From NCBI GenBank assembly GCA_028695135.1, contig JAQVJM010000003.1, positions 2,571 through 66,570 of the forward strand: 64,000 bases of DNA. Reading direction: 5' to 3'. Made by a program: the position numbers and the translations under genes. Of the stretch, positions 3,731 through 63,958 are shown piece by piece. Each line of letters begins with the position of its first letter. The first letter of the stretch is position 1. The DNA comes from Candidatus Moraniibacteriota bacterium. Its GTDB lineage: Bacteria; Patescibacteriota; Minisyncoccia; Moranbacterales; UBA9337. The notes beneath the pieces are model-generated. The model was not told the origin of the DNA. It saw only the letters and a program-made list of their open reading frames with translations, and did no database searches.

Positions 3731-4501
3731 ATGAATAAATTAGCGGTAGGAAACATAAAAATGAATATTATTTCGAAGATCGAAAGAGATAATTATTTGA
3801 AAATTCTTCGCGATAAGTTGAAAGGAAAAACTTTCGAAGAAACCTCCATAATTATCTGTCCTCCGGCGGTCCATTTGGAATATTTCTCAGAAAAAATAAA
3901 AAAAGGAAATATTTTTTGGGGAATACAAAACGCGCATTGGGAAAATTCCGGCTCTTATACTGGAGAAATTTCTCCTGCCATGGCCAAAGAAATGGGAGCG
4001 GATTTTGAAATTATCGGCCATAGTGAAAGAAGATCTAATTTTGGAGAAACCAATGATATGGTCAACAAAAAAATATTTTCCGCTTTCAAAAACAATCTTA
4101 TTCCTATAATGTGCATAGGAGAGAATATCGATGAAAGAAAGTCCGGAGAAACCAAGAAAGTCGTGCTGAATCAAATATTGGAAGGGCTGAAAGATTTAAC
4201 AAAATCCAAAGTTTCCAAGATGATAATAGCTTATGAGCCGGTTTGGTCCATAGGTACTGGAGAAACTCCTAGGGGAGAAGAAATAATGGGCGTAAGGATT
4301 CTTATCCAAAAAATTTTAGCGGACCAATTTGGTCTGACTATCAAACAAATGCCCAAGATATTGTACGGAGGATCGGTGGATTATAAAAATGCCAGAGAAG
4401 TCTGTCTGAGCGCGGGAATGGATGGAGTTTTGGTCGGAGGGGAATCGTTGTATCCGGATTCGTTCATAAAAATAGCGGAAATCTTAGAAGATAAAATTTA
4501 A
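3731..4501 (+). CDS. tpiA: Triosephosphate isomerase
   Basis: VGNIKMN (AGNWKMN-like), IGHSERR, AYEPVWSIGTG, GGSV motifs. Confidence 0.9.
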   Translation: MNKLAVGNIKMNIISKIERDNYLKILRDKLKGKTFEETSIIICPPAVHLEYFSEKIKKGNIFWGIQNAHWENSGSYTGEISPAMAKEMGADFEIIGHSERRSNFGETNDMVNKKIFSAFKNNLIPIMCIGENIDERKSGETKKVVLNQILEGLKDLTKSKVSKMIIAYEPVWSIGTGETPRGEEIMGVRILIQKILADQFGLTIKQMPKILYGGSVDYKNAREVCLSAGMDGVLVGGESLYPDSFIKIAEILEDKI

Positions 4502-4593
4502 CAAAAAACGATTTAATAAAACTAAAAATATATCGATTCGCATTATTTGCATATTATCAAATTAGCATTTATTCGCGGATTAGCATCAATCTT

Positions 4594-5632: not shown

Positions 5633-6796
5633 ATGAAGATATTAGTAGTGGCTCCGGTGCCTTTTTTTGTTGACAGAGGAACCCCGATGCGCATATTGGA
5701 GGAAGCTTTAGCTTTGGAAAAAAAAGGATTTTCCATCGATATGGTTTCTTATCATTTGGGAAGAGACATAAAAACGGTCGCGCCAGAGACAAAGATAAAA
5801 AATTTTCGCATTAGAAAAATAATGTTTTGGTATGATAAGGAAGAAGCCGGACCTAATTGGCAAAAAATAGTTTTGGATATTTTTTTAGTTTGGAAAACAG
5901 TGAAGGTTGCTTTTTTGAAAAAACCAGATATTATTCATGGGCATTTGCATGAAGGGGTGTTGATAGGATGGATGGCAAAAAATATCCTTTTTTGGAGAAA
6001 AATGAGATTAGTCGCTGACTTTCATGGAGAGTTGGTAAGCGAAATGGAGTCGCATGGATATTTGAAGGGAGGAATTATCAAGAAGGCTTTTTCCTTTTTA
6101 GAGAGGGTTATTTTTTCTCTCGGAGACAGGACTATCGTCAGTTCCGTGGAACTTAAGGACAAGATTAATAACTTTAAAAGAAGAGATGAAATAGCGGTCG
6201 TTTTGGACGGAGTGAATGTCGATAGATATGATTTAAACAAAAAAAATAAAATTAGAGATGGAAAATTGGGAGTGATTTATTCGGGAGCGTTTGTGGAAAA
6301 TAAAGGAATAAGCTTGCTGCTTAACTCCATAACAGAAATTTTTCGAGAAAAACATGAAGGCATCCATTTTATTCTGGCCGGAAGTCCGGTTGAAAATATA
6401 AGCGGATTCATAAAGAAAAATAATTTGGAAAAAATGGTGGAAATAGTGAGTCCGTTAGAATATAAGAATCTTCCGGAAACCAATATGAAAGGCGACATTG
6501 CGGTTGATCCAAAGACTTCTGAAACAGGCCAGGCCAGCGGAAAGATTCTCCAATATATGGGAGCCGGACTCCCGGTGGTATGTTTTGACAGGAAGAATAA
6601 TCGTAAATATCTGGGGAAAGCGGGGTATTATGTTTCAGATAAGACTTCCCGAGGCATAACCGAAGGCATTTTACATCTTTTTCGAAATCCGGATAAGATC
6701 GAAATGATGTCAAGAATTTCCAGAAAAAGGGCGGAGAAATTTTCATGGGAAAATTCAGCGGAAAAAATAATAAATATTTATAACAAGATAAGATGA
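5633..6796 (+). CDS. Glycosyltransferase family 1/4
   Basis: GT-B fold features, C-terminal E-x7-E like region (GLPVVCFDR...), typical GT4 length. Confidence 0.65.
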   Translation: MKILVVAPVPFFVDRGTPMRILEEALALEKKGFSIDMVSYHLGRDIKTVAPETKIKNFRIRKIMFWYDKEEAGPNWQKIVLDIFLVWKTVKVAFLKKPDIIHGHLHEGVLIGWMAKNILFWRKMRLVADFHGELVSEMESHGYLKGGIIKKAFSFLERVIFSLGDRTIVSSVELKDKINNFKRRDEIAVVLDGVNVDRYDLNKKNKIRDGKLGVIYSGAFVENKGISLLLNSITEIFREKHEGIHFILAGSPVENISGFIKKNNLEKMVEIVSPLEYKNLPETNMKGDIAVDPKTSETGQASGKILQYMGAGLPVVCFDRKNNRKYLGKAGYYVSDKTSRGITEGILHLFRNPDKIEMMSRISRKRAEKFSWENSAEKIINIYNKIR

Positions 6797-8163
6797 AAAA
6801 AAGATTGAATATAGCGGTATTTGCGATTGTGGCCTTTTTATTGCTGGTCGGAATATTTTTTATTATAAAGAATACAAATAAGGTTTCTCTGATTTCGACG
6901 TCGCTGTCCGCGGTTACAAATGTTGTCAAGCTTCTTCCGATAAAAGAAGACACAAAGAAAGAGATTGAAACAATTGACGCTCTTGCCAAAGAACTTACCA
7001 AAAAAGACGGAAAAGAAAGAAAATTTTTAATCTTACTTCAGAATAATATGGAGCTTCGTCCGGGAGGAGGATTTTTGGGACAGTATGCCGTCATAAAGAT
7101 TAAAGACGGAAATGTCACGGAAAATTATTTCGAGGATGCCAATCTTTTGGATCAAAGGATAAACGCAAAAATTCCGGCGCCTTATCCTTTTGAAAGGATG
7201 ATGAGTATAAAGAAGTGGAAATTTCGCGATTCTAATTTTTCTCCGGATTTTCCTACCAACGCGGAAAGAGCAAAATATTTTTACCGTTTGGCAGGGAAAA
7301 GCAGTGATTTTGACGGGGTTATAGCGGTCAATGCCGACACTTTCAACAGAGTTTTTTCCCTAACCGGACCAATTGCGATTCCGGGGTATGACGTTGTCTT
7401 AAATAGCGATAACGCTACTCTGGAATTGGAGGAAATCGTGGAAAAAAAATATATTATGGATGAGACTCTGGACACCCAGAACAGAAAAGCTGTGATGAAA
7501 ACCCTTACTGATACCATCGTGAAAAAATTGTCAGGTATTGAAAATATTCCCAAGATTTCCAATTTTGTCTTGGAAGAGCTTCGCAATAAAGATGTGATGC
7601 TCAATTTTGAGGATCAAAACCTCCAAAGAATGATTGAAGAAGCGCATTGGGCGGGAGGGGTTTCCGATGATTGGTCAGGCGATTACCTTATGATAGTAGA
7701 TGCTAATATGGGAGCGCTCAAGTCGAACTATTATGTGAAAAGAAGCATGGAATATAATGTCGATCTGACCGGAGAAAAGCCTATGGCAGAACTGAAAATT
7801 TTTTACAGGCATGAAGCCAGGTACGGAGATTGGAGAACTAGCGACTATCATTCTTATTTTCGTGTTTATGCTCCGCAAGGATCGAATTTGTTGGAGAGAG
7901 AAATGGTGAGTTATCCTTACATACAAGAGGAATTCAATAAGACTTATTTTGGATTTTTGCTCCATGTTTTGATAAACGGAAAGACTGATGTCAGGGTGAA
8001 ATACGAGCTTCCTGAAAAAGTGAGAGAAGATGGATACCGACTCTTAGTTCAGAAACAATCCGGAATGGGGGATGTTCCGTTTAAAATAATGGTTAAAACG
8101 GACAAGGGAGAATTTTCTCATGAAGAAACGCTTAAAAAAGATTTGAAATTTGAATTAAAATAA
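6793..8163 (+). CDS. DUF4012-like membrane-anchored envelope protein
   Basis: N-terminal TM helix; LRPGGGFLGQYAVIKIKDGNV motif characteristic of DUF4012 proteins that co-occur with glycosyltransferases; start overlaps upstream GT stop (ATGA). Confidence 0.5.
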   Translation: MKKRLNIAVFAIVAFLLLVGIFFIIKNTNKVSLISTSLSAVTNVVKLLPIKEDTKKEIETIDALAKELTKKDGKERKFLILLQNNMELRPGGGFLGQYAVIKIKDGNVTENYFEDANLLDQRINAKIPAPYPFERMMSIKKWKFRDSNFSPDFPTNAERAKYFYRLAGKSSDFDGVIAVNADTFNRVFSLTGPIAIPGYDVVLNSDNATLELEEIVEKKYIMDETLDTQNRKAVMKTLTDTIVKKLSGIENIPKISNFVLEELRNKDVMLNFEDQNLQRMIEEAHWAGGVSDDWSGDYLMIVDANMGALKSNYYVKRSMEYNVDLTGEKPMAELKIFYRHEARYGDWRTSDYHSYFRVYAPQGSNLLEREMVSYPYIQEEFNKTYFGFLLHVLINGKTDVRVKYELPEKVREDGYRLLVQKQSGMGDVPFKIMVKTDKGEFSHEETLKKDLKFELK

Positions 8164-9618: not shown

Positions 9619-10005
9619 ATGCGTTTATTTATAGTCTTTCTACTTTCCATAATTATCTTAGGCGCAGGCGTTTTCTTTTCAATGCCGGCTTTTAAGGAAA
9701 TGCGTCGATCTAAGGCTATCGAAAAAGAGATCGAAGAGCTTAGGGACGAAGCAGAGAGGATAGGATCCGACAATAACTTTTTAAGGGAACAGATAGAATA
9801 TTTAAAATCCGATCACTATAAGGAAAGATTAGCCAAAGACAAGCTTAATTTAAAAAATCCGGGGGAACAAGTAGTAGTTGTCCAGCCTGGCGGAAAGTCG
9901 GCAGATACGTCTGAAGATCGAAGAGAATCTGAAAATTTTGAAGAAGAAAGCTATAAAGAAGAAATTTCAAATTTTAAAAAATGGTTGAGATATTTTTTTA
10001 ATTAG
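9619..10005 (+). CDS. Septum formation initiator family protein (FtsB/DivIC-like)
   Basis: N-terminal TM followed by coiled coil (EIEELRDEAERIGSDNNFLREQIEYLK), KDKLNLKNPGEQVV resembles FtsB family C-terminal. Confidence 0.55.
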   Translation: MRLFIVFLLSIIILGAGVFFSMPAFKEMRRSKAIEKEIEELRDEAERIGSDNNFLREQIEYLKSDHYKERLAKDKLNLKNPGEQVVVVQPGGKSADTSEDRRESENFEEESYKEEISNFKKWLRYFFN

Positions 10006-19099: not shown

Positions 19100-19561
19100 A
19101 TGCAAAGAAAAAACAAGAAAGATAATAAAATAATTGATGGAAAAGATCTAAGAATCGGAATTATTGCGAGCGAATTTAACTGGGACATCGTAGGAAGCAT
19201 GCTTGAAGGAGCTCTGGATTTGTTAAAAAAAAATAATGTAAAAAAAGAAAGTATTAAAATTGTAAAAGTTCCGGGATCCTTTGAAATACCGCTGGCTTGT
19301 CAAAAACTTGCTCATAGTGATAAATTCGACGCTCTGATCGCTCTAGGATGCGTGATAAAAGGGGAAACCGGGCATTATTATTATGTGGCGGGAGAAGCGT
19401 CAAAAGGTGTCATGGATGTTATGCTTAAATTTTCTTTGCCGATCGGGTTTGGCATAATTACAACTGATAATTTAGCACAAGCAAAAAAACGATCCGGCGG
19501 GAAAAACAACAAAGGGAAAGAAGCTGCTGAAGCGGCGCTTAGGATGATTTTGATAAAATAA
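19100..19561 (+). CDS. ribH: 6,7-dimethyl-8-ribityllumazine synthase
   Basis: LRIGIIASEFNWDIVGSMLEGA, VPGSFEIP, GCVIKGET, HYYYVA motifs. Confidence 0.85.
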   Translation: MQRKNKKDNKIIDGKDLRIGIIASEFNWDIVGSMLEGALDLLKKNNVKKESIKIVKVPGSFEIPLACQKLAHSDKFDALIALGCVIKGETGHYYYVAGEASKGVMDVMLKFSLPIGFGIITTDNLAQAKKRSGGKNNKGKEAAEAALRMILIK

Positions 19562-19567
19562 TAAAAA

Positions 19568-19723
19568 TTTTCCCCCTTTAGAAAATGGGGCGGTCGCTCG
19601 CTTTGACTAGCGAGTGGGGGAATTGAAAAATTTTCGAAGTGAGTGGAGATAATAGATTTTTCTAAATTTTTCAAATCCCTCTGTCCCGCCTCGGCGAGAC
19701 ATCCCCCTTTTCTAAAGGAAGAG
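19568..19723 (+). repeat. Copy A of a ~150-nt multi-hairpin intergenic element (second copy at 44191-44330)
   Basis: Nested inverted repeats (cccccttt/aaaggggg; gggaattgaaaaatt/aatttttcaaatccc; gtcccgcc/ggcgagac; ccttt/aaagg) and conserved loop GTGGAGATAATAGA shared with copy B. Confidence 0.6.
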
Positions 19724-19745: not shown

Positions 19746-20540
19746 ATGAAACTGATAGATGGTAAAAAAATAGCTGATGGAATTTTGGCAGAGCTTAAAG
19801 AAAAAATAAAAAACAGCGGGTTTGTTCCGGGACTGGCTGTTGTTTTGGTCGGAAACGACAAGGCCTCCCAAATTTATGTCGGACTTAAGGAAAAAGCCGC
19901 TCGGGAAGTCGGGATTAATTTTGAGAAATTTTTATTTGATGAAGATGTTAAAGAAGAAGAAATTATATCGAAAATTGAAGGACTGAATAAGAATGAAAAT
20001 ATCCACGGAATAATAGTCCAGCTCCCATTGCCTGAAAAATTTGATACGGACAAGATTATAAATGCAATTTATCCCGAAAAAGATGCCGATGGATTTCGTA
20101 ATGGCAGCAAAAATGAAAATCCGGTCTTTCCTTCTGCAATCATGAAAATGATCCGGTCAGAAAGTGGGGATATAAAGAGTGCTGTCATAATAACCAAATC
20201 AAGCAAGTTCGGGGAATCGATGCAGGGAGTTCTGGAAAAGAACAATGTTGAAAGCGATTATTTATTCTGTGATAAATTCGAAAAAGATGATTTGAGCGGA
20301 TATGATGCGGTCATTACCGCTTGCGGAATGCCGGATCTTATCGGCAGTGAGTCAGTGAGAGACGGAGCAGTCGTGATTGACGGGGGGATAAAGAAGGAAG
20401 GGAAGAAAGTTCTGGGGGACATCGATATCGAATCTTTTAAAAATACGGATTGTGCGGTTTCGCCGGTTCCCGGAGGAGTCGGACCGGTAACCGTTGCCTG
20501 TCTTTTGGAAAGCGTCTATGAGCTTGCCTTAAAAAAATAA
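19746..20540 (+). CDS. folD: Bifunctional methylenetetrahydrofolate dehydrogenase/cyclohydrolase
   Basis: MKLIDGKKIADGIL..., PGLAVVLVGNDKASQIYV, IIVQLPLP motifs. Confidence 0.85.
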   Translation: MKLIDGKKIADGILAELKEKIKNSGFVPGLAVVLVGNDKASQIYVGLKEKAAREVGINFEKFLFDEDVKEEEIISKIEGLNKNENIHGIIVQLPLPEKFDTDKIINAIYPEKDADGFRNGSKNENPVFPSAIMKMIRSESGDIKSAVIITKSSKFGESMQGVLEKNNVESDYLFCDKFEKDDLSGYDAVITACGMPDLIGSESVRDGAVVIDGGIKKEGKKVLGDIDIESFKNTDCAVSPVPGGVGPVTVACLLESVYELALKK

Positions 20541-20671: not shown

Positions 20672-20755
20672 TGCCCGGAGAGAGACTCGAACTCTCACAG
20701 TATTGCTACCATTGGATTTTGAGTCCAACGCGTCTACCAATTCCGCCATCCGGGC
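20672..20755 (-). tRNA. tRNA-Leu (anticodon CAA), type II with long variable arm
   Basis: Reverse complement folds as GCCCGGA acceptor/UCCGGGC, D-arm GCG..AGA..CGC, anticodon stem UUGGA/UCCAA loop CUCAAAA, T-arm GAGAG-UUCGAGU-CUCUC, discriminator A; no encoded CCA. Confidence 0.85.
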
Positions 20756-42606: not shown

Positions 42607-42634
42607 TTTTACCATATTACGTAATATGGTAAAA
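42607..42634. promoter_or_regulatory. Perfect 28-bp AT-rich palindrome TTTTACCATATTACGTAATATGGTAAAA immediately after NUDIX stop
   Basis: Read directly; perfect dyad symmetry. Confidence 0.5.
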
Positions 42635-42809: not shown

Positions 42810-42838
42810 TTGACAAAGTTATCCATTTATGCTATAAA
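42810..42838 (+). promoter_or_regulatory. Sigma70-type promoter TTGACA-17nt-TATAAA upstream of 42883 ORF
   Basis: ttgaca 42810-42815, tataaa 42833-42838. Confidence 0.45.
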
Positions 42839-42882
42839 CCAAGGAAACTCTTGAAAGCATTTTTGGTTTTTTTAAAATTTTT

Positions 42883-43523: not shown

Positions 43524-43547
43524 CATCAATATACTAATATATTGATG
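43524..43547. promoter_or_regulatory. Palindrome CATCAATATA-ctaa-TATATTGATG upstream of AbrB-like micro-ORF (candidate operator)
   Basis: Perfect 10-bp inverted repeat with 4-nt spacer, 21 nt before ATG 43569. Confidence 0.45.
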
Positions 43548-43568
43548 TGGAATAAAAATAAAAAAAAT

Positions 43569-43712
43569 ATGGAAGACAAAAATATCAGAAAATTGGTCAA
43601 GAATGGCAGGGATAGTTATTATGTCTGCGTTCCCAAAGAGATTGTGAAAAAATACGGATGGAAGGAGAAGCAAAAAATGACTATTAAGGATAAGGGAAGA
43701 GGAAAAATTTAA
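43569..43712 (+). CDS. Small (47 aa) AbrB/MazE/SpoVT-like swapped-hairpin DNA-binding protein
   Basis: MEDKNIRKLVKNGRDSYYVCVPKEIVKKYGWKEKQKMTIKDKGRGKI: pattern R-K-L-x-K-x-G-x-S-x-x-V-x-V-P-K-E-I matches AbrB-N/SpoVT fold; below ORF-track cutoff. Confidence 0.5.
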   Translation: MEDKNIRKLVKNGRDSYYVCVPKEIVKKYGWKEKQKMTIKDKGRGKI

Positions 43713-43757: not shown

Positions 43758-44189
43758 ATGGCAGATAAAATTATAATGTACACAGACGGAGGTTCTCGCG
43801 GAAATCCCGGGCCGGCCGGAATCGGTGTTTGGATCGAGACGCTTGATAAGAAATACGGAGAGTGTATCGGGAAAAGGACCAATAATGACGCCGAGTATGA
43901 AGCTTTGATTTTCGGGCTTAAAAAGATCAAGGCGCTTTTGGGAAAGGCAAAAGCCAAGAAGTATGAAGTCGAATGTTTTTTGGATAGCGAGTTGGTCGTG
44001 AAACAGCTTAAGCACGAATACAAACTGAAGGAAGAAAGAATCCAAAAGTATTTTATCGAAATTTGGAATCTGATGCTGGATTTCAAGAAAGTCGAGTTTA
44101 GGCATATTCCGCGAGAGAAAAATATTATTGCCGATGGGCTTGTAAATGAAGCGCTCGATAATGATGGATGTCAAAAGAGTTTATTGTAA
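43758..44189 (+). CDS. rnhA: Ribonuclease HI
   Basis: YTDGGSRGNPGPAGIGV, NNDAEYEALIFGL, C-terminal D (ADGLVNEA) RNase H catalytic pattern. Confidence 0.85.
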   Translation: MADKIIMYTDGGSRGNPGPAGIGVWIETLDKKYGECIGKRTNNDAEYEALIFGLKKIKALLGKAKAKKYEVECFLDSELVVKQLKHEYKLKEERIQKYFIEIWNLMLDFKKVEFRHIPREKNIIADGLVNEALDNDGCQKSLL

Positions 44190-44190
44190 A

Positions 44191-44330
44191 TTCCTCCCCC
44201 TTTGGAAAAGGGGGATAAGAGGGGGATTTGAAAATTTTGCGAATGGGATTAAGTGGAGATTATTGAAAGCTTTTCAAATCCCTCTCCCGCTCTTCGTGAA
44301 GTGCGGGATCTCTCTTTGCTAAAGGGAGAG
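44191..44330 (+). repeat. Copy B of the ~150-nt multi-hairpin intergenic element (copy A at 19568-19723)
   Basis: ccccctttggaaaaggggg hairpin; gagggggatttgaaaa / ttttcaaatccctctc stem with loop containing AAGTGGAGATTATTGA; cccgc...gcggg; ctctcttt...aaagggagag. Confidence 0.6.
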
Positions 44331-44351
44331 TAAAAAATAAACAAATATACT

Positions 44352-45356
44352 ATGAAGAAATTTATAATCTGGGCAATCATAATAATTCTTATCGGTGGTG
44401 CAATCTTTTACTTTACTAGGTCGAAAGATGATAGTGGCAGGTATGTTACAGCAAGAGCGGCTAAGGCAGATATTATACAGACAGTTTCTGTAACTGGGGA
44501 AATAGTTCCCATAAATGAAGCGAATGTCAGTTTTGAAGTAAGCGGAACGATAAAGGACGTTTATGCGGAGGTGGGAGATTATATCAAAGCTGGAGACAAA
44601 ATCGCTGTTCTCGATGATTCGGTTATACAGTCCCAGTTGAGGGAAGCTTATTTGGAATTAGAAAGGCAAGAGGACATATTAAAACAATCCAGGAGGCAGC
44701 TGTGGGATGATATGAGTCCTGATGAAAAGTCTGCGGCCAAACTGGTTGTGGAAAAAGCCAGAGCGTCTGTTTGGACGCTTCAAAAACAAGCGAAAAAAAA
44801 TGTCTTGTATGCTCCGATTGACGGAATTATCGTCAAAAAATACCTAAAAAAAGGGGAATTAGCTATGCCCTCCTCCCCGGTGGTTATGATTATGGGAGAA
44901 GGCGGACTTGAGATTAAGGCCGATATTCCCGAATCGGATATAGTCAAGATCCGCATAGGCCAGAAAGCAAAAACTACGTTTGACGCTTTTTCTTCCGATG
45001 AAATATTTGAAGCCGAAGTTTCTTTCATAGAGCCGGCAGCCACTATTATACAAGACGTTGTTTATTATAATGTTACTTTTAATATTTTGACCGGTGATGA
45101 CAGATTTAAGCCGGGAATGAGCGCCGATATGGATATTGCCACGGCGGAGAAAAATGATGTTCTGGCGGTTCCGGGACAAACGGTGAAAACCGAAGGAGAA
45201 AATAAATATGTGGAAGTGCTTATTATCGGAGAAGATAAGAAGATAGAAGCGAGAAAAATGGACGTAAAAACAGGCCTTCGCGGAGACGACGGAATGATTG
45301 AAATTATTTCGGGAATTGAAGAGGGGGACGAGGTGATAACTTTTGTCAATGAGTAG
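44352..45356 (+). CDS. Efflux periplasmic adaptor (HlyD/MacA-like membrane fusion protein)
   Basis: N-terminal TM, biotinyl-lipoyl-like half motifs, coiled coil, beta-barrel region; operon with ABC ATPase and FtsX permeases. Confidence 0.75.
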   Translation: MKKFIIWAIIIILIGGAIFYFTRSKDDSGRYVTARAAKADIIQTVSVTGEIVPINEANVSFEVSGTIKDVYAEVGDYIKAGDKIAVLDDSVIQSQLREAYLELERQEDILKQSRRQLWDDMSPDEKSAAKLVVEKARASVWTLQKQAKKNVLYAPIDGIIVKKYLKKGELAMPSSPVVMIMGEGGLEIKADIPESDIVKIRIGQKAKTTFDAFSSDEIFEAEVSFIEPAATIIQDVVYYNVTFNILTGDDRFKPGMSADMDIATAEKNDVLAVPGQTVKTEGENKYVEVLIIGEDKKIEARKMDVKTGLRGDDGMIEIISGIEEGDEVITFVNE

Positions 45357-57512: not shown

Positions 57513-57600
57513 ATAGCCCGGATAATTCCGGGAAAACTTACGGGTAGATCGGCAATGTGATTCATTTCACAACCGGTCTGCCCATTTTTTTTATTCTCTC

Positions 57601-57640
57601 ATTATACGGTTCTATTGCAACCGCAATAGAACCGTATAAT
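57601..57640. repeat. Perfect 18-bp inverted repeat ATTATACGGTTCTATTGC-aacc-GCAATAGAACCGTATAAT
   Basis: Read directly; preceded by T8 on plus strand, not followed by a T-run on either strand. Confidence 0.6.
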
Positions 57641-57865
57641 TAAAATATAAAGTAGGCTCTCCGCATGAGTTGCACATCCGTGATTCGCGGATAATCTCAG
57701 TCTCCGCAGATTACTGATCGGCATTATGCTTCTTCTGCTTGCTAATATGAATTTTTTAGGATAGACTGGATATAAAGTGTTAAAAATATGAAATATCGAT
57801 AACTGTTATTCCTGTTTTTGAAAGCAGAGAATGGTGGTTGTTTTTATTTTATTGCTTAAAAAAAT

Positions 57866-62380: not shown

Positions 62381-63958
62381 ATGGAAAATAAAAATAATTC
62401 GGAAGGGCAAAATTTAAATCCCAATCCAGTTCTTAACCCTGAGAAAAATTCGAATCCTGCGCAATTTGATTCTACCCGGGATTCAAATAAAAGCGTAGAA
62501 CATCCAGAAGATCAAAACCAAAGTGTTCCCGTTCAAGGATCAAGCGCTATTGAATTTTTTGAGGAGGATAGCGCGGCAAGCCAAAATGAAAATCAGAAAT
62601 TGGGACAAAAAAATGGCAGTCGCAATAGTGAAGATCCAGCAGAAGGTATTTCAAAACAAATCACAGCTGAAAATAATTCTGCGATGCATTTTTTCATGTA
62701 TATGGTTTCATTTTTTTCCTTGCTTTTGTTTTCCACGGGTATAGGAACGATAGTTTTTCAAATCATAAATAAAAATATTTCTGATAATTTAATATACGAT
62801 TTTTCCGGATATTTCGCCAAAACGGCAGTCAAATACGGGATAGCGACAATCCTCATAGCCATGCCTATTTATTTTGTCCTGATGTATTTTATAAATAAAA
62901 AATTATATCAAGGAGAAATAGATGTCAATTCCAAAGTTAGAAAATGGCTGACATATATAATTTTATTCATAGCTTCAGCGATAATAATTGGAGATCTTAT
63001 AACATTGGTCTTTTATATGCTGGATGGCGACATGACAGCGAGATTCATCCTAAAAATTATAACCGTCATAATAATTGCCGGATTTATTTTTGGATATTAT
63101 TTATGGGATATGAAAAAGAACAATACGGCAGGAGTCAGATATATGGCCAATAAAATTTTTGCTATTTTCTCCATAATCATAAGCATTATCGTTCTATTTT
63201 CTTCATTCTTTGTTATCGACAGCCCTAAAGCAGCTAGAGATAAAAAAATGGATAATCAGACCTTGTCTGCATTAAGCTCATTGAACGCAAATGTTTTGAT
63301 TTATCATAACAAGAATCATAAATTACCCAATAACCTTGAAGAACTAGGATTAAGCAGTTATGAAAAGAGGAATCTTGATAATTTAGAAATACCGATAACA
63401 TACAAAAGATTAAGTGAAAACGATTATGAGCTTTGTACAAGCTTTAAAAGAGAGACTGAAAAAGAAAGCAATGAAAGGTATGGGTATTTATACAATGATG
63501 AGTGGATGCATCCGGCAGGAAATCATTGCTTTTCTAAAAAAATAGAAAATAAGCCTCAACAAAATAAAAACCAAGTTCCGGTAAATGCTAATAGTAGTGA
63601 CCAGGCTTATTTTGAGGGAATAGAGGCAGCCAGGGAAAAGGCGCAACTGGCGTCCGTAAAGTCTTATATATCCAGCACTTTTGCGGCGGCAGTCATCTGT
63701 AAAGATGGAGATGGAAAAATAATAAGCGGTTCGGGAGGAAGCCAAATGTGTGATAATGATTCAAATTATAAATGGCCGAATATCTCCATATGCGGAAATA
63801 ATCCCGAAAGCACGAAATGGATCGTTGGAATTACAGGAGAAGGCGAAAATGTGGAATGGAACATAACTTTGGATTGTGAACAGTTTTTGAGTTGTAACGG
63901 ATCCGCAAATGCAGTCTGTACAGAAGAAGGTTGTAACTTTTCCGGCACTTGCCAGTAG
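62381..63958 (+). CDS. Multi-TM membrane protein with pilin/pseudopilin-like extracytoplasmic segment and Cys-rich C-terminus
   Basis: Low-complexity N-terminus, 5 TM helices, then PKAARDKKMDNQTLSALSSLNANVLIYHNKNHKLPNNLEEL resembling type IV pilin-like alpha1-C/ab-loop, C-terminal 10 Cys. Confidence 0.45.
   Translation: MENKNNSEGQNLNPNPVLNPEKNSNPAQFDSTRDSNKSVEHPEDQNQSVPVQGSSAIEFFEEDSAASQNENQKLGQKNGSRNSEDPAEGISKQITAENNSAMHFFMYMVSFFSLLLFSTGIGTIVFQIINKNISDNLIYDFSGYFAKTAVKYGIATILIAMPIYFVLMYFINKKLYQGEIDVNSKVRKWLTYIILFIASAIIIGDLITLVFYMLDGDMTARFILKIITVIIIAGFIFGYYLWDMKKNNTAGVRYMANKIFAIFSIIISIIVLFSSFFVIDSPKAARDKKMDNQTLSALSSLNANVLIYHNKNHKLPNNLEELGLSSYEKRNLDNLEIPITYKRLSENDYELCTSFKRETEKESNERYGYLYNDEWMHPAGNHCFSKKIENKPQQNKNQVPVNANSSDQAYFEGIEAAREKAQLASVKSYISSTFAAAVICKDGDGKIISGSGGSQMCDNDSNYKWPNISICGNNPESTKWIVGITGEGENVEWNITLDCEQFLSCNGSANAVCTEEGCNFSGTCQ

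Follow-up and report, generated by a model that had tools for sequence, protein, structure and literature searches.

The closest described counterparts of the element reported here, in both behaviour and architecture, are the repetitive extragenic palindromic (REP) sequences and bacterial interspersed mosaic elements (BIMEs) of Escherichia coli and the REPINs of Pseudomonas, followed by the Correia, ERIC, RUP and BOX elements. REPINs are REP doublets that are moved by RAYT, an HUH Y1 transposase, and REP hairpins can shield the upstream mRNA from 3' exonucleases. All REPs known to us are specific to a species or a genus. Bacteria of the candidate phyla radiation (CPR, or Patescibacteria) have tiny genomes and few mobile elements. 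The element in question is present twice in a stretch of 64 kb (hereafter the window) from the genome of a member of the Moranbacteria, a CPR lineage. Both copies, of ~140-155 nt, are non-coding and intergenic, and the sequence and the open reading frames (ORFs) place them where a previous sequence-only reading had put them, on the same strand and between co-directional genes. They are probably non-coding, non-autonomous palindromic DNA repeats of the REP/BIME/REPIN-MITE kind (MITE, miniature inverted-repeat transposable element). Like REPs and BIMEs, they are made of short imperfect intergenic palindromes, the units being about 33-53 nt here, which occur singly, in tandem or as inverted pairs folding into a long hairpin. 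Like the Y and Z REPs, they comprise two paired subtypes, here C5/G5 with CCTCCC/GGGAGG, and, as is also the case for REPs and BIMEs, they are located between genes that are probably co-transcribed, straight after stop codons. The positions of the two copies and of the stop codons that precede them are as follows.

19559-19561, forward strand: TAA stop codon of ribH, with the insertion point of copy A at most ~10 nt downstream and the ATG of folD at 19746 (ORFs).
19571-19723, forward strand: copy A, in the gap between ribH and folD.
44187-44189, forward strand: TAA stop codon of rnhA, with copy B beginning 2-6 nt downstream and the ATG of the adaptor gene at 44352 (ORFs).
44195-44330, forward strand: copy B, in the gap between rnhA and the efflux adaptor gene.

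With regard to the relationship between the two copies, they are homologous, exhibiting 78-80% column identity in a MAFFT alignment, and blastn with harsh scoring aligns 120 nt of them (E=1.6e-9). The terminal palindrome CCCCCTTTRGAAAAKGGGG was found four times in the window by pattern search, only at the ends of the elements, for an expectation of 0.07. Folded as single strands, copy A reaches -63 kcal/mol (z=-5.7) and copy B -59 kcal/mol (z=-4.1). In view of the four end-palindrome matches and of these z-scores, the elements are not due to chance. The sequence of this genome covered in the search for copies amounts to ~74 kb, i.e., the window and 10 kb upstream; blastn (word size 7), patterns and unit models gave no third copy, whether in the window, in the 10 kb further upstream or at the syntenic loci of relatives. 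The flanking genes encode DMRL synthase (ribH) and FolD (folD) for copy A, and RNase H (rnhA) followed by an RND/HlyD-type periplasmic adaptor for copy B.

Both sites are empty in relatives that have FolD or adaptor proteins 65-72% identical to those of the window and that keep the same gene neighbours. At the site of copy B, the relative L030 has its adaptor gene (as called) 31 nt after the rnhA stop, without the element, and the sequence that begins with this stop, TAAAAAATAAA, recurs unchanged as the right flank of copy B (44331-44341). At the site of copy A, only 20 nt separate the ribH stop from the folD start in the relative L036. As the same gene pairs are 20-31 nt apart and element-free in relatives, both copies are lineage-specific insertions. 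Other relatives are arranged differently: L013, the closest FolD relative, is missing the riboflavin genes and has a recA-folD gap of 68 nt, and L031, likewise without the element, has at the site of copy B a gap of 94 nt with a different small palindromic element. Both copies begin about 5-10 nt after the TAA stop and leave ~22 nt before the next ATG intact. The comparison of copy B with its empty site fits a target-site duplication of TA, TAA or TAAA equally; for copy A, the empty site of which is highly diverged, only TA fits, and TA is frequent by chance in AT-rich DNA. The available assemblies of the source genome are 99.8-99.99% identical, which is too close to inform on selection.

Each element consists of two units in inverted orientation, with their arms pointing inward. 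Parsing of related sequences in viral contigs resolved the unit into an arm, AATCCCyC(C), a slot, and a conserved hairpin, which is CCyCCCTTT..AAGGGrGG or an all-C/all-G variant. The slot contains either a linker of 3-6 nt or a GC-rich hairpin of essentially free sequence. In the window, the layout is hp1, X, GGGGGAWT, an AT-rich spacer, AATCCCTCT, P3 and hp2, where X and P3 are slot hairpins; copy A has both slots filled by a hairpin, and copy B the right slot only. The two arms pair to form a long central stem, and the end hairpins hp1 and hp2 are mutually complementary, each being also able to fold on itself. The stems, which had been described as nested, are thus serial hairpins: hp1, an optional variable hairpin, the long central hairpin, a variable hairpin, and hp2. 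The other details of the previous description hold: the arms GGGGGA(A/T)TTGAAAA and TTTTCAAATCCCTCT are present in the copies, the common apical motif AGTGGAGAT[A/T]AT[A/T]GA is found at 19642-19656 and 44252-44266, and the extra hairpin (19591-19615) is confined to copy A. Alignment of the whole composites with MAFFT/RNAalifold misaligned the left halves, and the parse into modules and alignments based on covariance models were used instead.

Two covariance models, R1 (91 units) and R2 (9 seeds), were built from viral-contig sequences only, and the window was searched with them with filters off. The matches were the following.

44194-44230, forward strand: R1 match, 40.6 bits, E=1.6e-11.
19674-19722, forward strand: R2 match, 33.0 bits, E=8e-7.
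44277-44329, forward strand: R2 match, 28.7 bits, E=1e-5.
44195-44228, reverse strand: R2 match, 20.9 bits, E=1e-3.
19572-19624, reverse strand: R2 match, 11.2 bits, E=0.34, the decayed left unit of copy A.

The next-ranked R1 matches in the window are only other hairpins of the two elements, and the top four R2 matches correspond one to one to the four half-elements, no other match being noteworthy. The elements of the window therefore belong to a widely dispersed family of units. No units were found with R1 and R2 in those fetched loci of the Moranbacteria relatives that were searched.

This family was surveyed in viral contigs by two scans. In the first, the end palindrome had 77 matches, distributed over 63 stretches with a GC content of 33-69% and usually adjoining the arm AATCCCCC or GGGGGATT; in the second, the other half of the element was the query and 101 stretches were obtained. 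The viral loci that were fetched contain 279 R1 and 215 R2 matches, and more than 300 occurrences of the unit overall. In these loci, units stand alone, in tandem or as inverted pairs of both kinds, with up to 13 units per 6 kb. The two-unit composite is also present in the viral contigs L087, L122, L142, L151, L159 and L221, and on the four Acinetobacter plasmids NZ_CP090068, NZ_CP022299, NZ_CP147683 and NZ_CP038025, downstream of a 3-oxoacid CoA-transferase gene. These composites also keep the asymmetry of the window elements, in that a C5/G5 unit is combined with a CCTCCC/GGGAG unit on the opposite side. Single units are found on Synechocystis and Acaryochloris plasmids. Other searches were less productive: blastn against cultured phages, with the consensus unit and a phage-contig composite, and against plasmids, with copy B, gave no match; the pattern GGGGGATTN{5,35}AATCCCTC gave mostly chance matches in viral contigs, 7 out of 120 being real; a scan of genome contigs with both central arms gave six unrelated simple hairpins; and a scan of metagenome contigs with the apical motif and the 3' arm gave only the orthologue of copy B (L021), chance matches and a eukaryotic repeat. 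Empty sites at both loci in relatives, together with inverted palindromic units dispersed in unrelated contigs, support the view of a REP/MITE-like repeat that the sequence-only reading had put forward. Of the checks it had named, the Rfam scan yielded no family and the search for copies found two in the sequence covered, with abundant relatives in other contigs.

L062, L085 and L100 (IMGVR_UViG_2531839184_000003) and L097 (IMG/VR) are Mu-like phage or prophage contigs, in which the unit lies between many genes and Pfam identifies terminase, Mu portal, Mu F and Mu gp27. In L097, units are located at 651-831, 2238-2480, 4408-4529 and 6081-6199, and include tandem arrays with a 41-nt period. Such tandem arrays on the Mu-like contigs could pass for CRISPR arrays. 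The portal protein of the unit-rich Mu-like prophage has distant matches only. About 15 of 98 IMG/VR units are followed, at a distance of 5-8 nt from GGGGGATT, by the start of a long ORF, and the G-tract arm might thus also serve the next gene as a Shine-Dalgarno sequence.

The modules of the two window copies can be delimited as follows.

19571..19590, reverse strand: copy A hp1, outer conserved hairpin of the left unit, TCCCCCTTTAGAAAATGGGG, with one C.U mismatch; overlapped by the R2 match at 19572-19624.
19591..19615, reverse strand: copy A X, variable slot of the left unit, CGCTCGC-TTTGAC-T-AGCGAG, -10.2 kcal/mol.
19616..19633, reverse strand: copy A arm of the left unit, GGGGGAAT, extended as TGAAAAATTT; 5' half of the central stem.
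19634..19663, forward strand: copy A AT-rich spacer between the arms, with the 15-nt motif AGTGGAGATAATAGA (19642-19656) in common with copy B.
19664..19682, forward strand: copy A arm of the right unit, AAATTTTTCA-AATCCCTCT; 3' half of the central stem (R2 match, inverted repeat I17).
19683..19701, forward strand: copy A P3, variable slot of the right unit, GTC.CGC-CTCG-GCG.GAC, -9.3 kcal/mol.
19702..19723, forward strand: copy A hp2, outer conserved hairpin of the right unit, TCCCCCTTTTCTAAAGGAAGAG, decayed, with two C.A mismatches.
44195..44228, reverse strand: copy B left unit, with hp1 TCCCCCTTTGGAAAAGGGGG (44195-44214), the linker ATAAGA and the arm GGGGGATT (44221-44228).
44229..44276, forward strand: copy B extension of the central stem, TGAAAA/TTTTCA, and spacer with the motif AGTGGAGATTATTGA (44252-44266); inverted repeat I18.
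44277..44330, forward strand: copy B right unit, with the arm AATCCCTCT (44277-44285), P3 (44286-44308) and hp2 TCTCTCTTTGCTAAAGGGAGAG (44309-44330).

Instead of X, copy B has the 6-nt linker ATAAGA at 44215-44220, and in the viral-contig relatives the slot that X fills in copy A is occupied by unrelated GC hairpins. The sole single-nucleotide polymorphism between strains falls in the loop of the X hairpin, at 19606. The P3 hairpin is kept in both copies though the sequences differ, that of copy B being CCCGC.CTT-CGTG-AAG.GCGGG (-11.2 kcal/mol). In copy A, hp2 is complementary to hp1 (inverted repeat I1, arms of 34 nt, 74%), and the central stem is the inverted repeat I17, of 16 nt and 94% complementary, with one uncompensated A.A mismatch relative to copy B. 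Besides this mismatch, the C.U of hp1 and the two C.A of hp2 in copy A, and a T.G in hp2 of copy B, are found where the family stays paired, which suggests that the copies are decaying relics that are no longer maintained. The 15-nt spacer motif is confined to the subfamily of this genome and was not seen in the viral or plasmid relatives. As the central-stem extension TTGAAAA/TTTTCAA and the AGTGGAGAT motif are common to the two window copies only, these form a single subfamily, which spread within this lineage.

The nature of the constraint on the hairpins was assessed on a model-guided alignment of 150 matches, comprising 102 distinct rows. In the helices, 98.5% of the cells form standard pairs, a share that drops to 79% in shuffles and does not exceed 64% with the partners slid. 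There are 253 compensatory cells, compared with 68 in shuffles, and changes on both sides in 11 of 15 pairs. Among 1433 helix cells, only ~4 are G.U and 3 are one-sided changes. In the variable helix, all four Watson-Crick pair types occur at most positions. An analysis of the slot that is independent of this alignment, using slot sequences of at least 12 nt, comprised 54 distinct sequences: 96% of them form hairpins of at least 4 pairs, and a folding energy of -5 kcal/mol or lower is reached by 91%, compared with 11% of shuffles. These slot hairpins have 35 different 5' arms and loops of 3-4 nt. With regard to orientation, among the units that adjoin co-directional genes, 10 have the same orientation as the genes and 12 the opposite one in the larger set; an earlier, smaller and partly redundant viral set had given 26 and 11, respectively. 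Free covariation without wobble pairs fits a palindrome that acts on both DNA strands, or a structure that is needed in either orientation, and would not be given by an RNA made from one strand. As the covariation is almost entirely restricted to Watson-Crick pairs and the orientation shows no bias, the constraint points to a DNA-level palindrome rather than to a sense-strand RNA.

A functional structured RNA, either carried by the operon or transcribed independently, and acting as mRNA stabiliser, RNase site, attenuator or small RNA under RNA-level selection, is nevertheless the first alternative to be weighed. Both copies are oriented in sense with the co-directional genes that flank them, their folds are very stable (both the energies and the z-scores given above), the variable hairpins differ in sequence but not in structure, and the G.U pairs of copy B are functional on the forward strand only. 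The 26 to 11 bias of the first viral set and the ~15% of units located 5-8 nt upstream of a start codon, as if they were a ribosome-binding site, are in line with this explanation. However, the bias disappears in the larger set, wobble pairs and one-sided changes are nearly missing among 102 distinct units, and the conservation of stems with variable loops and junctions is the reverse of what riboswitches and ribozymes exhibit. In addition, the copies were gained through insertion at unrelated loci. The sense strand folds better, by 14 kcal/mol, in copy B only, and copy A folds equally well on either strand. Rfam 15 gave no match for the elements: at the gathering score, the whole window contains only a tRNA, a permissive scan of copy A (E<=10) gave chance-level matches only, and eight related loci gave no match at E<=0.1. 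A conserved structured non-coding RNA, the other possibility of the sequence-only reading, is therefore not supported, on account of the lack of an Rfam match, of the near absence of G.U and one-sided changes and of the occurrence in either orientation relative to genes, and we regard it as unlikely. An intrinsic terminator or attenuator that would be similar at the two loci by happenstance is improbable. The hairpins are GC-rich and come straight after stop codons, and the outer hairpin in the Acinetobacter plasmid is followed by a T-run; but no U-tract follows the hairpin in either window copy, a terminator scan of both loci found zero terminator-like sites, and the two-unit architecture is also found in divergent and convergent intergenic regions. 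Moreover, the flanking genes are probably co-transcribed, as they are only 20-31 nt apart in relatives. A promoter scan of both loci found one promoter-like match, in copy A only.

Two further explanations remain at the DNA level. A classical MITE would be a deletion derivative of an insertion sequence with a DDE transposase, with terminal inverted repeats (TIRs), a TA or TAA duplication and a full-length mover elsewhere in the genome. The size (<200 nt), the lack of coding capacity, TIRs of 23-34 nt with 74-78% complementarity (23 nt with 5 mismatches in copy B), the TA on the flanks of both copies and the fit of the copy B empty site to a TA, TAA or TAAA duplication are all compatible with it. 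In contrast to the ends of DDE MITEs, these supposed TIRs are palindromic units that, in other loci, stand alone, form tandems or pair in both arrangements. The searches yielded no insertion sequence bounded by such ends, the window has no transposase and has these ends nowhere else, and the duplication of copy A cannot be fixed; a classical MITE is thus rather unlikely. A simple local duplication of an intergenic segment, with neither mobility nor family, agrees with the detection of just two copies in the sequence covered and is what the sequence-only reading would have concluded from two copies without compensation. This point is not decisive, since members of the family abound in other contigs and the insertions do not depend on the surrounding genes. 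The two copies have unrelated flanks, relatives of this genome lack the element at both sites, and hundreds of relatives of the unit are present in unrelated contigs. Simple duplication is already contradicted by the unit-model matches, and we give it almost no credence. Four other candidates were discarded: an integron attC site, as the R''/R' cores (RYYYAAC / GTTRRRY) are missing by inspection and the neighbours are syntenic housekeeping genes rather than cassettes; a retron RNA, as there is no reverse transcriptase; a folD riboswitch, as the second copy precedes an unrelated gene; and 6S, SRP or Y RNA, as there is no Rfam match.

The favoured reading, i.e., palindromic DNA repeats of the REP/BIME/REPIN-MITE kind, has to be qualified by the differences from each known group. 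Unlike in REP/RAYT systems, the window did not yield a RAYT gene, and the units did not reveal a GTAG-like 5' tetranucleotide. Unlike REPs, the unit has three parts, including a hairpin slot of free sequence, its copy number here appears low, and the same unit sequence is found across phyla and phages. The Correia/NEMIS elements of Neisseria, the ERIC/IRU elements of enterobacteria and the RUP and BOX elements of Streptococcus pneumoniae resemble the window elements in being non-coding, 100-160 nt long and bordered by TIRs, in being intergenic and probably co-transcribed, and in being present or absent among related genomes; BOX is also modular. In contrast to these families, the window elements have self-palindromic ends that also occur as single units, they lack a clear TA duplication and a partner insertion sequence, and their distribution extends beyond one genus. 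To our knowledge, there is no sequence similarity to Correia/NEMIS, ERIC/IRU, RUP or BOX. The palindrome-associated elements (PATEs) derived from IS200/IS605 and the cyanobacterial small dispersed repeats (SDR) also have subterminal hairpins rather than true TIRs, nested or modular hairpins, and insertion next to a short AT-rich target, the duplication of which is ambiguous or absent. Unlike for PATEs, however, there is no TnpA/TnpB nearby, and the guide and cleavage tetranucleotides cannot be defined from two copies; a relation to PATEs/SDR is conjecture. Integron attC sites likewise follow gene ends and conserve their structure while the central hairpin varies, but they differ in their R''/R' core sites, missing here, and the neighbours here are housekeeping genes.

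Several observations weigh against the favoured reading of mobile palindromic repeats. Only 2 copies are present in the ~74 kb of genome covered, and a high copy number is unproven here. There is no transposase or RAYT gene in the window and no mobilising gene between the unit pairs in the phage contigs, where the ORFs are phage structural proteins by inspection and Pfam. The target-site duplication is ambiguous, both copies are sense-oriented in operons, and copy B has the better sense fold. The covariation alignment was fitted to the model structure and its matches were picked by the same model. Finally, the unit sequence is conserved across CPR, Gammaproteobacteria, Cyanobacteria and phages, which is atypical of known REPs, and this cross-phylum conservation could reflect a conserved function rather than mobility. 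As two features that define REP/RAYT systems, a RAYT gene and a high copy number, were not found or are unproven here, the elements are not classified as proven members of REP/BIME but as working like them. Nevertheless, the evidence establishes insertion at two unrelated sites, a two-unit architecture, membership of the dispersed family and a strand-symmetric constraint on the hairpins.

On this reading, a subfamily with the extended central stem and the AGTGGAGAT motif entered the Moranbacteria lineage and was inserted there on two or more occasions, always a few bases past a TAA stop and ahead of the final ~20 nt that precede the next start codon. In such compact operons, the gap after the stop is probably the sole place that tolerates insertions, and a copy would survive only where it spares the stop codon and the translation-initiation region. 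The movement of the units may have depended on a trans-acting protein, of the HUH/RAYT or IS200/IS605 type, that recognises hairpins on single-stranded DNA. Such a protein would recognise the conserved hairpin and the arm, as RAYT and the TnpA of IS200/IS605 do, and the variable hairpin would merely be a structural spacer, possibly kept perfect by repair within the extruded hairpin. In the host, the elements would be co-transcribed and would give, at most, a stable intercistronic RNA hairpin that shields the upstream 3' end or slows read-through.

For this genome, the result is ordinary and of modest interest: two operons have acquired very stable hairpins from selfish insertions that are now decaying. 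The unit, in contrast, is not lineage-specific and falls outside Rfam; it is a module of 30-50 nt with a slot accepting any perfect hairpin, and is present in phages and plasmids of unrelated hosts. No description of the unit family was found in the literature, which was searched by topic and by sequence string, and no description of small mobile palindromic repeats in Patescibacteria was found in the literature searched. We suggest, tentatively and as a less than even possibility, that the unit represents a cross-phylum element family that was not described before, spanning CPR, Acinetobacter and cyanobacterial plasmids, and many phages. If this were true, either a widespread enzyme acting on hairpins in single-stranded DNA moves the units, or the units are a portable intercistronic punctuation carried by phages and plasmids, i.e., a module for RNA processing, stability or ribosome binding that is moved between hosts. 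Either version would explain the conservation at the nucleotide level across contigs of 33-69% GC. Finding what moves or uses the unit could lead to a new mobilisation system that recognises hairpins, or to a common intercistronic signal of phages, and would remove a recurrent source of spurious ORF, CRISPR and non-coding RNA calls in metagenomes. The unit family deserves a proper survey.

Other small elements were observed in the Moranbacteria relatives. The different palindromic element in the rnhA-adaptor gap of L031 (3688-3766) has the ends GTCATTCTGA...TCAGGATGAC, each arm being a hairpin. A 62-66% match to it is present in L013 (8794-8882), between a gene with an HTH_25 domain and recA, and L014 and L015 share only a 34-nt piece with it (7033-7066). 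L014 also exhibits, upstream of folD (9845-9925), a GC-rich element with several hairpins, CACCCCCTCT-GTCCC..GGGAC-TTGAATGC..GCATTCAA-..AGAGGGTG, a second copy of which, with 66% identity, is found downstream of folD in the variant contig L015 (11430-11525). This L014/L015 element and copy A of the window have the 11-mer CCCTCTGTCCC in common. Several families of mini-elements seem to colonise the intergenic gaps of the Moranbacteria clade. Just upstream of the window, and in an otherwise tightly packed genome, L032 has a stretch of 1.2 kb without a called gene (6093-7269), 36 nt of which are weakly similar to the copy A spacer.

Further features were noted in the window. The tRNA found by Rfam (20672-20755, reverse strand, 84 nt, 61.3 bits) has a long arm and lies in the folD-parA interval, on the strand opposite to its neighbours. 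The window differs from the 99.8% identical L021 by a 32-nt indel at 42829-42860, in the intergenic region after a NUDIX gene; near it are a perfect palindrome of 14+14 nt (42607-42634) and 17-nt inverted repeats (42571/42760). A long hairpin at 57590-57651, with arms of 29 nt that are 86% complementary and a loop of 4 nt, is located ~215 nt upstream of the gene for ribosomal protein L9. The last gene of the window (62381-63958; L034), which encodes a DUF5671 protein, matched only two short contigs and not the 236-kb JGI contig that has the genes of the start and middle of the window, which suggests strain or assembly differences at this end. Finally, a small AbrB/MazE-like ORF of 56 aa, with the sequence ...SYYVCVPKEIVKKYGWKEKQKMTIKDKGRGKI, lies just upstream of rnhA (43542-43712, forward strand). 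A similar frame, interrupted by a TGA, is present upstream of folD in L037 (5815-5970), with AAGTACTCGAGTAAGTACTT hairpins on its flanks, and also in L014 (5336-5542); this ORF may be a small mobile cassette.

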